This document shows, piece by piece, positions 13,911 to 18,928 of a stretch of 64,000 nucleotides of DNA (the first letter of the stretch is position 1; each line of letters opens with the position of its first letter). The stretch is from Marivita sp. GTDB taxonomy: Bacteria; Pseudomonadota; Alphaproteobacteria; Rhodobacterales; Rhodobacteraceae. The stretch spans positions 21,195-85,194 of the forward strand of contig NZ_CBFHLV010000006.1 in NCBI RefSeq assembly GCF_965656765.1, in the 5' to 3' direction. The translations under genes and the position numbers were made by a program. The notes beneath the pieces were generated by a model. The model was not told where the DNA came from. It was given only the letters and a program-made list of their open reading frames with translations, and did not search any database.

Positions 13911-14239
13911 GTCCCAACCCCGATCTCGTCCAGAAACCGTTCGATCCCGGCTGGTGCCGCATCGGCGCAGCTGGCGATCTCGGCCTTGATCGCGTCGAAT
14001 TTCAAGCGCAGCGCTTTTTTCTCTTCGCCCTTGCAGTCGTTCCACGGGCGTCCCTGCAATCCCATAACCAGCACATAGTAGCCGATGAAATGCGGTCGCA
14101 TGCCTGACAGCAACAACTGGCGATATGCCTCGTCCGCGCCCAGCGCCCGAAGAGCGTCTGCCGATCCAATGCCTGCTTTGGCGCAAGCGTCATCCATCGC
14201 CGGTCCAAGGTTGCGAATAGATGAGACCGGCTCGGCCAT
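13901..14239 (-). CDS. TfoX/Sxy C-terminal domain protein
   Basis: SIRNLGPAM...AGIGSADALRALGADEAY...HFIGYYVLVMGLQGRPW; ATG overlaps the aminotransferase stop (TAATG). Confidence 0.85.
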   Translation of the reverse strand: MAEPVSSIRNLGPAMDDACAKAGIGSADALRALGADEAYRQLLLSGMRPHFIGYYVLVMGLQGRPWNDCKGEEKKALRLKFDAIKAEIASCADAAPAGIERFLDEIGVGTKR

Positions 14240-15420
14240 TACGCAGCCGTCGCAAGCCCGGCTGCAAAGCCACACAGCGTCCGCAACGCCGCCTCAAAGC
14301 GGTCATCGCTGACGGTCATTGCGACACGGATGTGCCCAGCTGCCGACGCACCAAAGCTTTCGCCGGGCATCACGGCAATCCGTTCCGCATCAAGCAGCGC
14401 ATTGGCGAACGCTTCGCCCGATAGTCCCGTGTCCCGAACATCCAGCATGACGTACATCGCCCCTTGCGCAGGGATCATGCGGACCACGTGTTGCGTGGCC
14501 AAAACCGTTTCGGCAATTGCCCGCCGCCGCAGGAAAGGGGCTGCGACCTCGGACTCCAATTCCGCTCCGGCCTGTAGACCAAACAGGGCGGCATCCTGAA
14601 TGTATCCGGGCACGCCATAGGTGGTGTTGGTCGCCAAATCGACCAGGGCTTCGATGGCCGACTCAGGCCCGATGATCCAGCCTATCCGGCTTCCGGTCAT
14701 CGCGTGGCTCTTGGACATGGACCCGATCACCAAAGTGCGCTCAACCATGCCGGGCAGGGCGCGCGGCGACACATGGGCACCGTCCCAAATCTGCGTATCA
14801 TACACCTCGTCTGAGATCAGCCACATGTCATGTGCCGTCACTACGTCTGCGATGGTCTGCAAGGTGTCACGTGGATAGACCGCGCCAGTTGGATTGTTCG
14901 GTGTGTTGATCAAAAGCGATGCCGCTCCATCACACGCGGCTTCGAGTGCGTCCCGCTCTGGCAGAAACCCGTTCGAAGACCGTGTGGCCACCGTGCGCGG
15001 CACCGCACCTGCAGACCGTACAAGGCCGGGATAGGTCGCGTAATAGGGATCAATGTACAGTGCCACATCGCCGGGTTCGCAGACCGCCATATGCGCCGCG
15101 AACAAGCCTGCCTGACCGCCGGGGGTGATCAACACGTTCTCACGCCGTGTCGGCACACCAGACTGCGCCTGAACCCGTGCCGCAACCTCGTCGCGCAAGG
15201 CGTTCACTCCGGGCACCATGGCATAGCCGGTATGTCCACCCATGGCGCTTTGGTACATCGCTTTCAGGATCGATGGATCGGTGCCTATGTCATGCTCACC
15301 GATGGTCAGCTCGATCACGTCCTGTCCGGCCTCGACCATGGCGCGGGCACGGTAGAACACGTCCCAGCCGTCTGATCCGTCTCCATTGAGGGTCGTGATG
15401 CGATGTGACAAGGCTGGCAT
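14239..15420 (-). CDS. PLP-dependent class I/II aminotransferase
   Basis: LINTPNNPTGAVY, ISDEVY, SMSKSHAMTGSRIGW (PLP lysine); start trimmed to MPALS. Confidence 0.93.
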   Translation of the reverse strand: MPALSHRITTLNGDGSDGWDVFYRARAMVEAGQDVIELTIGEHDIGTDPSILKAMYQSAMGGHTGYAMVPGVNALRDEVAARVQAQSGVPTRRENVLITPGGQAGLFAAHMAVCEPGDVALYIDPYYATYPGLVRSAGAVPRTVATRSSNGFLPERDALEAACDGAASLLINTPNNPTGAVYPRDTLQTIADVVTAHDMWLISDEVYDTQIWDGAHVSPRALPGMVERTLVIGSMSKSHAMTGSRIGWIIGPESAIEALVDLATNTTYGVPGYIQDAALFGLQAGAELESEVAAPFLRRRAIAETVLATQHVVRMIPAQGAMYVMLDVRDTGLSGEAFANALLDAERIAVMPGESFGASAAGHIRVAMTVSDDRFEAALRTLCGFAAGLATAA

Positions 15421-15526
15421 GGGTCTCTCCGATAATTGTGCTTCCGTCCTGCCAGAGCGGGTGCCCGAAAGTCCAGATCGAACCGCTGTGACGCAAGATG
15501 TTTCGAAACGGCTTGGCGCAAAATTC

Positions 15527-15555
15527 TTGACCGTTTGCACACGCGCCAGCTAAGC
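15527..15555 (+). promoter_or_regulatory. Putative sigma70 promoter of the leader-cysS-cimA transcript
   Basis: TTGACC-N16-GCTAAGC resembles alphaproteobacterial housekeeping promoters; would put the start site a few nt before the leader ATG. Confidence 0.55.
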
Positions 15556-15562
15556 AGGCCTC

Positions 15563-15604
15563 ATGAGCCGTATCTCAACATCCATTTGCTGCATTATCCG
15601 CTAA
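15563..15604 (+). CDS. Putative leader peptide MSRISTSICCIIR (Cys/Ile rich) upstream of cysS-cimA
   Basis: ATG AGC CGT ATC TCA ACA TCC ATT TGC TGC ATT ATC CGC TAA, 83 nt before the cysS ATG. Confidence 0.75.
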   Translation: MSRISTSICCIIR

Positions 15605-15612
15605 TCCATTTG

Positions 15613-15682
15613 GTGGGCCGGTCTTCTATTCCAATCATGAGATGAAGTTGCTACTCCCGCCGCAATCCCGGCCCGCGAGGAG
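15613..15682 (+). promoter_or_regulatory. Alternative RNA helices gating the cysS Shine-Dalgarno
   Basis: GUGGGCCGG (15613-21) pairs with CCGGCCCGC (15668-76); alternatively CUCC-CGC (15654-60) pairs with GCG-A-GGAG (15675-82), which contains the SD. Confidence 0.6.
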
Positions 15683-15687
15683 CATCC

Positions 15688-17121
<1,434 letters not shown>

Positions 17122-17144
17122 ATGCACTCCAGTGGAACCACTCA

Positions 17145-17285
17145 GCCCGGCGGCACGCCGGGCCGCGCCCGACCCTCCCCACGGGAGGGCGCCTTGGCTA
17201 CCGGCTCGCACCGAACCAGCGGAATGCGTGTGACGCTGCCTCGTACCGCTCGAACGACAGATGCGCCCACCCAGGGTCGGGCGCG
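17145..17285. repeat. MITE/REP-like palindromic element between cysS and cimA
   Basis: 13-bp perfect inverted repeat CGCGCCCGACCCT (17164-76)/AGGGTCGGGCGCG (17273-85); internal CCCTCCC-CAC-GGGAGGG hairpin; preceding GCCCGGCG-GCA-CGCCGGGC hairpin. Confidence 0.7.
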
Positions 17286-17308
17286 CCCCTTATCGCCCGG
17301 ATACCCCG

Positions 17309-18928
17309 ATGACCAAAACCAGCCTGACCCTATACGACACCACGCTGCGCGACGGGCAGCAGACGCAGGGCGTGCAATTCTCGACGCCCGAGAAACACCG
17401 CATCGTTGAGGCGCTTGACGCCATTGGCATCGACTATATCGAAGGTGGCTGGCCTGGGGCAAATCCCACTGACAGCGCCTTTTTCGATGAAGTTGGACAT
17501 ACCAAAGCCACCGTTACCGCATTTGGCATGACCAAACGCGTGGGCCGCTCGGCAGAAAATGACGACGTACTGGCCGCCGTGATGAACGCGGACACCAAGG
17601 CGGTCTGTCTGGTGGGCAAAACCCATGATTTCCATGTGACCGCCGCGCTTGGCATCACCCTCGACGAAAACGTCCAGAACATTCGCGCCTCGATAGCGCA
17701 TATCGTGACGCAGGGTCGCGAGGCGCTCTTTGACGCCGAACACTTTTTCGACGGCTACAAGGCCAATCCCGACTATGCGTTAACCTGTTTGCACGCTGCC
17801 TATGACGCTGGAGCGCGGTGGGTCGTTCTGTGCGACACCAACGGGGGGGCACTGCCGTCGGAAGTGAGCCAGATCACCAGAACTGTGATCGAAAGTGGCA
17901 TCCCCGGCGACCATGTCGGTATCCATACCCACAATGATACCGAAATGGCTGTCGCCGCCACATTGGCCGCTGTCGATGCCGGGGCGTGTCAGATTCAGGG
18001 CACGCTTAACGGGCTGGGCGAACGCTGCGGCAACGCGAACCTGACCGCACTGATCCCGACATTGCTGCTCAAGGAACCTTACGCCAGCCGCTATGAAACG
18101 GGTGTGACGCAAGATGCGCTTGAAGGAATGACCCAGATCAGCCGCATGCTGGATGAAATCCTCAACCGTGTGCCATTGAAACAAGCGGCCTATGTTGGAT
18201 CGTCTGCCTTTGCGCACAAGGCCGGATTACACGCCAGCGCGATCCTCAAGGATCCCACGACCTACGAACATATTGACCCGGCGCAAGTGGGCAATCGCCG
18301 GGTGATCCCGATGTCCAATCAGGCGGGCCAGTCCAATCTGCGCCGCCGTCTGTCTGAAGCAGGGATCACCATCGCGGATAAAGACCCGGCGCTGGCCCGT
18401 ATTCTTGACCGGATCAAGGCGCGGGAATCCGAAGGCTATTCCTACGATACCGCGCAGGCGAGTTTTGAGCTGTTGGCACGTGATGAATTGGGGCAACTGC
18501 CTGAATTCTTCGAGGTCAAACGCTACCGGGTGACGGTGGAGCGGCGGAAAAACAAATACAACAAGATGATTTCGCATTCCGAGGCAGTTGTCGTGGTCAA
18601 GGTCGGCACCGAAAAGAAGCTGTCGGTCAGTGAATCAATGGACGATCTGGGCAACGACCGTGGCCCGGTAAACGCGCTTTTCAAGGCGCTGGCCAAAGAC
18701 CTTGGTCCCTATCAGGACATGATCGACGACATGCGGCTTGTCGACTTCAAGGTGCGCATCACCCAAGGCGGAACCGAGGCCGTGACCCGCGTCATCATCG
18801 ACAGCGAGGACGGGCAGGGACGGCGTTGGTCCACCGTTGGTGTCAGCGCAAATATCATCGACGCCTCGTTCGAGGCGCTGCTGGATGCAGTGCGCTGGAA
18901 ACTGGTGCGGGATGCGCAGTCTGCATGA
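17309..18928 (+). CDS. cimA: Citramalate synthase (LeuA/CimA family)
   Basis: YDTTLRDGQQTQG, IDYIEGGWPGANP, FDAEHFFDGY, GIHTHND, GERCGNANL, AHKAGLH; the DAEHFFDGY subfamily is CimA-type. Confidence 0.92.
   Translation: MTKTSLTLYDTTLRDGQQTQGVQFSTPEKHRIVEALDAIGIDYIEGGWPGANPTDSAFFDEVGHTKATVTAFGMTKRVGRSAENDDVLAAVMNADTKAVCLVGKTHDFHVTAALGITLDENVQNIRASIAHIVTQGREALFDAEHFFDGYKANPDYALTCLHAAYDAGARWVVLCDTNGGALPSEVSQITRTVIESGIPGDHVGIHTHNDTEMAVAATLAAVDAGACQIQGTLNGLGERCGNANLTALIPTLLLKEPYASRYETGVTQDALEGMTQISRMLDEILNRVPLKQAAYVGSSAFAHKAGLHASAILKDPTTYEHIDPAQVGNRRVIPMSNQAGQSNLRRRLSEAGITIADKDPALARILDRIKARESEGYSYDTAQASFELLARDELGQLPEFFEVKRYRVTVERRKNKYNKMISHSEAVVVVKVGTEKKLSVSESMDDLGNDRGPVNALFKALAKDLGPYQDMIDDMRLVDFKVRITQGGTEAVTRVIIDSEDGQGRRWSTVGVSANIIDASFEALLDAVRWKLVRDAQSA

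Follow-up and report, generated by a model that had tools for sequence, protein, structure and literature searches.

A short Ile/Cys-codon leader upstream of cysS in Rhodobacterales: a probable ribosome-mediated attenuator with competing helices and a linked cimA gene

A short leader precedes cysS, the gene for cysteine--tRNA ligase, in a stretch of DNA of 64,000 nucleotides from Marivita sp. (Rhodobacteraceae, Rhodobacterales; contig NZ_CBFHLV010000006.1, positions 21,195 to 85,194), which is called the window here and whose own numbering is used throughout. Comparison with related genomes makes it probable that the cysS leader of Rhodobacterales is a ribosome-mediated attenuator. It would operate on a short and probably leaderless upstream open reading frame (uORF) and on four segments of the transcript that pair as 1:2, 2:3 and 3:4, the fourth segment being the Shine-Dalgarno (SD) region of cysS itself (Table 1). 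The leader lies in a 265-nt spacer that separates cysS, whose start codon is the ATG at 15688, from a divergent aminotransferase gene (14239-15420, minus strand), and it is single-copy in the window's own genome. The uORF reads ATG AGC CGT ATC TCA ACA TCC ATT TGC TGC ATT ATC CGC TAA (15563-15604), with tandem TGC at 15587-92 (residues 9-10) and four Ile codons in total. A first-pass annotation, made from the letters of the window, had listed this uORF, promoter-like boxes before it (a TTGACC and a GCTAAG box read off at 15549-54), the tandem TGC, the four Ile codons and two helices, all of which are present where it placed them, and its naming of the downstream genes as cysS and cimA (citramalate synthase) is confirmed by TIGR00435 and TIGR00977.

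The window element is uORFC-8-2, a motif predicted computationally by Brewer et al. (2021, RNA Biol 18:2417, PMC8632094), so its core has already been described as a prediction, of which the first-pass annotation did not know. The motif was reported with 145 examples, exclusively upstream of cysS in Rhodobacterales, and with a conserved AUG, two tandem Cys codons that are mostly UGC, two stems of which the first contains the Cys codons, and a 3' run of U; it was read as a ribosome-mediated attenuator sensing Cys-tRNA, in which stalling overrides an intrinsic terminator (PMC8632094). The window leader agrees in lying directly upstream of cysS on the same strand, in belonging to a host within Rhodobacterales, and in having the AUG and the tandem TGC, the Cys being residues 9-10 here and worded as '14 and 15' in the paper (PMC8632094). 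As to the stems, the window shows one strong stem, P1, at the end of the uORF, while its Cys codons take part in weak 3-bp UGC/GCA pairings only. The published description mentions Cys only, a terminator and an exclusive occurrence in Rhodobacterales; in leaders of the window's family, Ile is as conserved as Cys. Beyond that description there are a covarying second helix, P2, and a conserved anti-SD pairing downstream of the published motif, a uORF that looks leaderless, cimA linked wherever this was checked among loci with Ile/Cys leaders, and homologous leaders in Hyphomicrobiales (Sinorhizobium, Mesorhizobium, Brucella, Bosea, Xanthobacteraceae). These features, with the putative coupling of cimA to cysS, are what is new relative to the publication; a Cys-codon uORF attenuating cysS having been published as a prediction, the value of the window is confirmatory, with refinements. 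A literature search returned no follow-up of uORFC-8-2 and nothing on cimA leaders, and a search of 14800-16400 against Rfam 15, with E up to 10, matched no family.

How widely is this leader distributed? A homologous Ile/Cys-rich uORF stands at the same place upstream of cysS in all 22 genomes of the genus, with a variable N-terminal half (MTRIATL, MTNTAPI, MIRVASL and others) and a fixed end, I-C-C-I-I-R-stop. For the family, one genome was sampled per genus, about 100 genera altogether, and the leader was found 50-150 nt before cysS in 129 of the 137 upstream regions, 22 of these being from the window's genus; this distribution supports the class proposed by the first-pass annotation, a putative leader-peptide switch before cysS that has its promoter immediately ahead of it. 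Representative peptides are MKSTCIICCIIIC, MNRICIIICCIAC and MNTTICIICCIITC, and the closest named loci for cysteinyl-tRNA synthetase (CysRS) are those of Roseicyclus, Sulfitobacter, Roseovarius, Defluviimonas and metagenome-assembled genomes of Rhodobacteraceae or Paracoccaceae. Among more distant loci, an Ile/Cys-rich uORF is present in 33 of 87, compared with 2 on the reverse complement and 2.3 in shuffles. The uORF is therefore far above chance expectation. Carriers outside the family include Sinorhizobium and Ensifer (MKTVICIICRKIIR), Mesorhizobium (MKTSFAICGICIIG), Brucella, Phyllobacterium, Neorhizobium, Bosea, Pseudolabrys and Xanthobacteraceae.

Over the last nine residues in 99 genera, Ile accounts for 38.5%, Cys for 29.6% and Thr for 10%, and Leu, Val, Phe and Met each for less than 2%; since other hydrophobic or AT-rich codons are nearly absent, the enrichment is specific to Ile. 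The Cys codons, which are TGC 261 times and TGT 20 times across the family, form a conserved core, in line with the first-pass annotation, and its attention to Ile was likewise well placed, the Ile codons being as conserved as the Cys codons. Counting back from the stop, Ile occupies position -3 in 94 of the 99 genera and is encoded there by ATT in 88; Cys or Ile fills positions -4 to -6; and Ile is found at positions -7 and -8 in 60-67 genera, where ATT and ATC are chosen freely, which points to selection on the codon family. ATT makes up 61% of the Ile codons in leaders, whereas the cysS ORFs of these loci use it for 22%. The last two codons follow the pattern NCC-NGC (Thr, Pro or Ile, then Cys, Arg or Gly), which comes from RNA pairing in P1 and not from the peptide, and the stop is UGA in 94 of the 99 genera and UAA in the window. 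The C-terminal Ile/Cys run is conserved with synonymous changes, and the N-terminal half is free to vary. It is a separate observation that codon -3 (15593-15595 in the window) is held at ATT although cysS ORFs prefer ATC (74%), a constraint at the level of nucleotides.

No canonical promoter scored in the leader region with a consensus scan. Across genera, a CTTGAC-like hexamer (at least 5 of 6 matches) is nevertheless seen in 76 of 97, its first T being at -36/-35 from the uORF ATG in 64, and a 'TA' lies at -13 to -11 from that ATG in 84 of 97. An SD-like tetramer precedes the uORF in 4 of 97 genera, in contrast to 79 of 97 for cysS. As the -35 and -10 elements keep a constant distance from the uORF, which has no SD ahead of it, the transcript most likely begins at the uORF AUG or 1-2 nt before it, which would make the uORF leaderless.

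What structures does this transcript adopt? The single-sequence fold of the window leader is no better than those of shuffled sequences (z = +1.19), so that the evidence for structure is comparative and not thermodynamic. Column covariation in a raw MAFFT alignment of 127 leaders (360 columns) was swamped by Y-G noise and was abandoned; anchor-based counts, partner-swap permutations over 97 genera and a trimmed 50-genus alignment were used instead. P1 joins the last two codons and the stop (15597-604) to the GCGGG of segment 2 (15610-17). It is in the minimum free energy (MFE) fold of the window and is predicted across the family leaders examined, with a mean dG of -10.7 kcal/mol; 85.6% of its cells are paired in the 50-genus alignment, against 28-47% when the partner is slid, its partner-swap z is -8.8, and the GCGGG is nearly invariant family-wide. 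P2, GGCGGG : CCCGCC (15612-17 : 15656-61 in the window), is the single consensus helix given by RNAalifold for 22 leaders, with compensatory changes. Within the genus, GGCGGAC is matched by GUCCGCC in three loci (L014, L019, L021), a compensated G-to-A and C-to-U. The P2 core is 87.9% paired in the 50-genus alignment, against 32-49% with the partner slid, its flanking pair 15612:15661 covaries (C-G in 18 genera, G-C in 15), and its partner-swap z is -7.0 to -7.5. P1 and P2 are mutually exclusive, as both use GGUGGG of segment 2. The upper P2 stem shows no covariation (z = -0.7). A nearly invariant 9-mer, GTTGCTACT (15647-15655; family consensus GUUGCUAAG), adjoins segment 3 on the 5' side, within an asymmetric internal loop of P2; it covaries weakly with the cysS start region (z = -2.1) and gives no pairing signal with the 5' part of the uORF (z = +0.3).

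The third pairing brings segment 3 to the ribosome-binding site (RBS) of cysS. CUCC-CGC (15654-60) is complementary to GCG-A-GGAG (15675-82), and the helix is present in the MFE fold of the window. GCGAGGA is invariant within the genus, where CUCC/GGAG alternates with G(U/C)C/GAC, and 65 of 97 genera have a GCGAGG-like motif (at least 5 of 6 matches), mostly 4-9 nt ahead of the ATG, a count that is partly circular as the motif includes the SD. Partner swapping gives z = -4.2 for the segment 3 region with the RBS region and z = -4.8 for a hairpin between segment 3 and the SD. As in translational attenuators, a segment of the leader is thus predicted to pair with the RBS of the regulated gene. 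The pyrimidine-rich tract that follows segment 2 was considered as another partner of the SD or RBS and was rejected, since it shows no covariation with them (z = +0.6). The window itself has a palindrome of its own, AUCAUGAGAUGA (15636-15646), which contains a mini-ORF ATG AGA TGA and pairs with GCAUCCAUGA (15683-15693) around the cysS start, and this pairing makes the RBS hairpin unusually stable in the window genome.

Table 1. Coordinates of the leader elements and of the two downstream genes in the window.
Feature	Positions	Strand	Remarks
-35 box TTGACC of the leader promoter	15527..15532	+	
Probable -10 box TAAGCA	15551..15556	+	'TA' position kept across genera
Leader uORF, MSRISTSICCIIR*	15563..15604	+	13 codons plus UAA
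Regulatory codon run AUU UGC UGC AUU AUC	15584..15598	+	Ile-Cys-Cys-Ile-Ile; regulatory role predicted
Segment 1, UCCGCUAA	15597..15604	+	5' arm of P1; uORF end plus stop codon
Segment 2, UUGGUGGGC	15610..15618	+	3' arm of P1 and 5' arm of P2
Pyrimidine-rich, G-poor tract, UCUUCUAUUCCAAUC	15622..15636	+	'Run of U' of the published motif
Segment 3, CUCCCGCC	15654..15661	+	Partner of segment 2 or of the SD region
Second CCCGC-like copy, CCGGCCCGC	15668..15676	+	3' arm of the first helix of the first-pass annotation; genus-specific
Segment 4, GCG-A-GGAG	15675..15682	+	SD region of cysS
cysS, cysteine--tRNA ligase	15688..17121	+	TIGR00435, 432.5 bits vs cutoff 340
cimA, citramalate synthase	17261..18928	+	TIGR00977, 590.8 bits vs cutoff 450

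The comparative observations above concern the uORF and its Ile/Cys make-up, the covarying P1 and P2, the complementarity of segment 3 to the SD and the distance of the promoter; from them, and from the cysS-cimA linkage described below, we infer how stalling, the direction of regulation, the level of output and Ile sensing might fit together. When charged tRNAs are plentiful, a ribosome reaching the stop codon would cover part of segment 2, and P1 would form after it leaves; both of these replete states would leave segment 3 free, and so the SD would be masked and expression would be low. If instead a ribosome stalls because the Cys or Ile codon in its A site (15587-15598) lacks charged tRNA, it would cover segment 1 only, the free segment 2 would capture segment 3 during transcription, and the SD would stay open for translation of cysS. 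The geometry of the footprint accords with this: with a hungry codon in the A site, the leading edge falls at about 15599-15610, where segment 1 is covered and GGUGGG is free, and with the ribosome at the stop codon it falls at about 15614, within segment 2. cimA would follow by co-transcription, or by translational coupling in those genera where the genes overlap, and P1 together with the U-rich tail might also make transcription pause or terminate weakly.

At which level would such a switch act? That unmasking of the SD is the main output we hold to be a little short of an even chance. The three helices of a 1:2, 2:3, 3:4 design are all present, with the SD as segment 4 and no terminator behind it, the sequence after the SD in the window being CAUCCAUG. 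When P1 is forced, SD accessibility is 0.39, compared with 0.535 when P2 is forced, and it is higher with P2 in 61 of 97 genera, but this comparison is biased, as masking more bases always frees the remainder. Several further points weigh against SD unmasking. In equilibrium folding with a 28-nt ribosome footprint placed at each codon, SD accessibility is unchanged across the family (0.40-0.45), and the SD of the window stays paired (0.27) at every stalling position, with slight opening at the stop codon only. Folding under such footprints was a check named in the first-pass annotation, and the opening of the SD by a stalled ribosome, which it had inferred, does not occur at equilibrium. A switch would then have to be kinetic, with segment 3 taken up by segment 2 before the polymerase has reached segment 4; the equilibrium folds themselves speak neither for nor against such a kinetic switch. 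The pairing of segment 3 with the SD draws its support mainly from conservation, with weak covariation (core versus SD, z = -1.5), and in most genera no more than about two G of the SD take part in it. Finally, the conserved U-rich tract right after P1 fits a pause or a terminator, as published.

Termination or pausing at this tract is an alternative output, which we regard as unlikely rather than probable, and the same holds for the full published model, in which P1 and the U-rich tract form an intrinsic terminator, a Cys-stalled ribosome prevents the hairpin and so allows read-through, and P2 and the pairing of segment 3 with the SD take no part. This model is stated in Brewer et al. (2021; PMC8632094), and a transcriptional switch would directly control cimA. 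Of the hairpins, P1 is conserved best, and a pyrimidine- and U-rich tract always comes after it; family-wide this tract has 6.5 T and about 1.5 G per 14 nt and 12 pyrimidines per 16 nt, and 38% of genera reach at least 5 T in 8 nt after P1, a terminator-like rule, and 75% at least 4 T. However, the longest T runs after P1 are just 2-4 and usually start 3-5 nt past the stem. In the window tract, 15622-30 (UCUUCUAUU), no U run is longer than 2, and a terminator scan of 15300-15800 found no terminator, in agreement with the first-pass annotation, which had seen no U-tract terminator; the scan was negative in the Sinorhizobium leader too. The model also leaves the covarying P2 and the conserved GCG before the SD unexplained, and a ribosome at the stop codon would block P1 as well, so that the replete state would not be clearly 'off'. 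Or, the same tract could load Rho, being exposed in the P1 state and buried in the P2 hairpin. It is conserved as pyrimidine-rich with few G and lies inside P2, and uORFs gating the access of Rho are known for mgtA and tna. The tract is short for this, about 15-20 nt, and the upper P2 stem that would bury it does not covary; we consider Rho-dependent attenuation improbable here. Candidate roles for the tract itself (15622-15636) are those of a pause site, of the tail of a weak terminator or of the upper P2 stem.

A different wiring had been drawn in the first-pass annotation, where GUGGGCCGG (15613-21) pairs with CCGGCCCGC (15668-76), the anti-SD helix 15654-60 : 15675-82 is its alternative, the two exclude each other through two common bases, and the ribosome decides between them. 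The sequences are complementary as described, and both helices are present in the window; the first has 9 bp and occurs in 16 of 22 genomes of the genus, and the anti-SD helix is in the MFE fold and recurs as a conserved complementarity. Comparison across the family, akin to the alignment over Rhodobacterales that it had itself proposed, bears out the short ORF with Cys/Ile codons and the anti-SD part (z = -4.2 as above), but not the first helix, which shows no covariation over the 97 genera (z = +0.9). Its 3' arm is absent in L007, L013 and L017, and it is uncompensated where segment 2 mutates, in the same three loci in which P2 is compensated. An overlap of two bases is a weak exclusion, whereas P2 competes directly for segment 3, and covaries. 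This exact wiring is thus very improbable, and the competitors that covary family-wide are P1 and P2 instead. That the uORF is a functional micropeptide, or a chance ORF, is hardly credible. The peptide is hydrophobic and its C-terminus is conserved, but its last two residues are dictated by the RNA pairing of NCC-NGC, its N-terminal half varies freely, and the single-copy uORF is always joined to P1 and P2 before cysS; chance is excluded by the reverse-complement and shuffle controls.

Does the attenuator sense Ile as well as Cys? CimA is the entry enzyme of the threonine-independent isoleucine route, and cimA lies downstream of cysS on the same strand in all 28 family genera with enough downstream sequence, so that the interest of the first-pass annotation in this gene pair was justified. 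The stop of cysS and the start of cimA abut or overlap in several genera (..CTGAAATG, TAATG), with GGAGG within the end of cysS; L118, L127, L129 and L139 are examples (..AAGCTGGAGGCGCTGAAATG, ..GACTAATG). This arrangement suggests that cimA is translationally coupled to cysS in the overlapping genera. In the window, the TIGR00977 alignment of cimA begins at residue 21, and the ATG at 17309 may be the true start. In Hyphomicrobiales, cimA is downstream on the same strand in all leader-bearing loci that could be checked, with a gap of about 3 kb from cysS in four genomes of Sinorhizobium, Ensifer, Mesorhizobium and Aminobacter.

These gaps have contents of their own. In Sinorhizobium (L070 4883-7306) there are three genes of the GFA family (Cys-rich zinc proteins) and an alpha/beta hydrolase gene, all on the same strand, and in Brucella (L074 4667-5520) a DUF559 gene and a GFA gene. 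The cysS-cimA spacer of the window (17122-17308) contains two strong GC hairpins, GCCCGGCGGCACGCCGGGC (17146-64) and CCCTCCCCACGGGAGGG (17174-90), without a U tail, and near-identical nested palindromes stand in the same spacer of many other genera (e.g. L003, L008, L112, L120, L126, L134). The palindromes (17146-17190), which belong to the spacer in the window's genus, look like an insertion of the REP (repetitive extragenic palindromic) or MITE (miniature inverted-repeat transposable element) kind into an originally overlapping gene pair.

Dual sensing of Cys and Ile seems to us evenly balanced between yes and no, and the specificity of the Ile codons is a stronger argument for it than the co-occurrence with cimA. 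As the Ile/Cys leaders probably share one origin, co-occurrence may reflect a single event and proves nothing alone. Ile and Cys are both enriched, each being relevant to a gene of the operon, as in multivalent attenuation, and multivalent leaders such as those of thr and ilv are well established. The alternative is that Cys alone is sensed, the Ile codons being kept for slow decoding of AUU by wobble, for an effect of the nascent chain on stalling or termination, or as an unstructured stretch, and the cimA linkage being inherited synteny; this we take as a serious contender, somewhat on the doubtful side. It would account for the fixed ATT of codon -3 and for the excess of ATT over the cysS ORFs. 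Two facts which speak against Ile sensing fit it as well: a ribosome held up at the Ile codons -7 and -8 would not extend far enough downstream to cover segment 1, and next to cimA in other lineages there are two Cys-rich leaders that lack Ile (L265, L267). Where cimA is not linked to cysS, no Ile-rich leader was found before it in six genomes, which can be counted on the side of Cys alone and is by itself uninformative. Against Cys alone stand the specific enrichment of Ile, the free alternation of ATT and ATC at -7 and -8, the retention of cimA downstream on the same strand wherever checked among loci with Ile/Cys leaders, and the finding of Cys-only leaders mostly without adjacent cimA. In the relatives of Dongia that carry the Cys-only leaders MTDCCCGCD, MTDCCCVE and MARKCACCSR, no cimA lies within the 1.5 kb of downstream sequence examined, and in Dongia itself cimA is about 2.5 kb from cysS. 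As for CimA, no protein of the window's genome exceeds the cutoff of TIGR01124, the biosynthetic threonine dehydratase, but there is a 409-aa relative at 288 bits, and CimA may, but need not, be the exclusive route to 2-oxobutanoate. Taken as a whole, it is possible, and we put it forward tentatively, that one ancient leaderless leader is common to Rhodobacterales and Hyphomicrobiales, in which a lack of charged Cys- or Ile-tRNA would flip P1 to P2, unmask the cysS SD and raise CimA by coupling.

Leaders that appear to be of other kinds precede cysS elsewhere in Alphaproteobacteria. Relatives of Dongia (L252, L253, L255, L258, L265) carry Cys-only leaders, MTDCCCGCD, MTDCCCVE, MARKCACCSR and MARNCVCFCP, 33-74 nt before cysS, which look like a separate, Ile-free family of cysS leaders. 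In small-genome alphaproteobacteria (L232, L238, L244), cysS is preceded at 44-55 nt by ORFs that resemble metallothioneins and have 9-11 Cys in 27-32 codons, for example MTHQSCSCKKCDCHGNCGKNCACGCCK; these could be another kind of Cys-sensing leader or genuine small metal-binding proteins, and cimA was not found in G256, the sole genome of this group that was searched.

The logic proposed for the Rhodobacterales leader has precedents in several systems. In E. coli, the pheM leader peptide controls pheST, an aminoacyl-tRNA synthetase operon, and multivalent leaders have codons for Thr and Ile (thr) or for Ile, Val and Leu (ilvGMEDA). The window leader shares with pheM, thrL and ilvL the four-segment logic of 1:2, 2:3 and 3:4, of which the exclusive helices 1:2 and 2:3 are found here. 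In those leaders, however, 3:4 acts as a canonical intrinsic terminator that ends in a U run, and an SD precedes the leader ORF, whereas in the window segment 4 is the SD itself, no terminator comes after it, and the uORF has no SD. In the LEU element of actinobacterial leuA and in attenuation of the ermC type, translation of the leader decides whether the downstream SD is sequestered; genes, signals and taxa are different there, and the erm stall is induced by a drug and not via tRNA charging.

Leaderless Cys-codon uORFs have also been described in two other lineages. Mycobacterial leaderless poly-Cys small ORFs have been tested experimentally, and their stalled ribosomes block a duplex that sequesters the next RBS (Canestrari et al., 2020, bioRxiv 10.1101/834739). 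They resemble the present element in being leaderless short ORFs of Cys codons and in unmasking an RBS, but they belong to another phylum, precede Cys metabolic operons and not cysS, have Cys runs without Ile, and show no homology in sequence or structure. The cysS mRNA of Deinococcus deserti, whose transcription start site was mapped, encodes a leaderless leader peptide of 10 residues with two Cys, for which a mechanism was merely suggested (de Groot et al., 2014, PMC4007540); this lineage is unrelated, and neither linkage to cimA nor enrichment of Ile was reported. As to translation of the present uORF, the supplements of S. meliloti ribosome profiling (Ribo-seq) studies list neither a homologous peptide nor cysS.

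Outside Firmicutes, with their T-boxes, and E. coli (pheST, thrS), little is known of how aminoacyl-tRNA synthetase genes are controlled. Here one short leader seems to control cysS in two large alphaproteobacterial orders, to which model roseobacters, Rhodobacter, rhizobia and Brucella belong. Should the Ile codons prove sensory, the leader would be a natural two-input ribosome sensor that links the charging of tRNA-Cys to isoleucine synthesis by way of citramalate, so that one sensor would serve both a tRNA ligase and an enzyme for making a different amino acid, and its compactness and leaderless start would make it useful for synthetic control.

Two minor observations concern cysS itself and its surroundings. 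In other alphaproteobacteria (L023, L026, L049, L050, L059, L224), an ORF that enters the cysS start ends in ..LRLALTG..GPE.., which is probably the C-terminus of glutamyl-tRNA synthetase (gltX), and in L224 an ORF end of this type stands directly before cimA. The identity of CysRS to its relatives falls toward the 3' third of cysS (16600-17121), and several tblastn matches end near residue 375-395.

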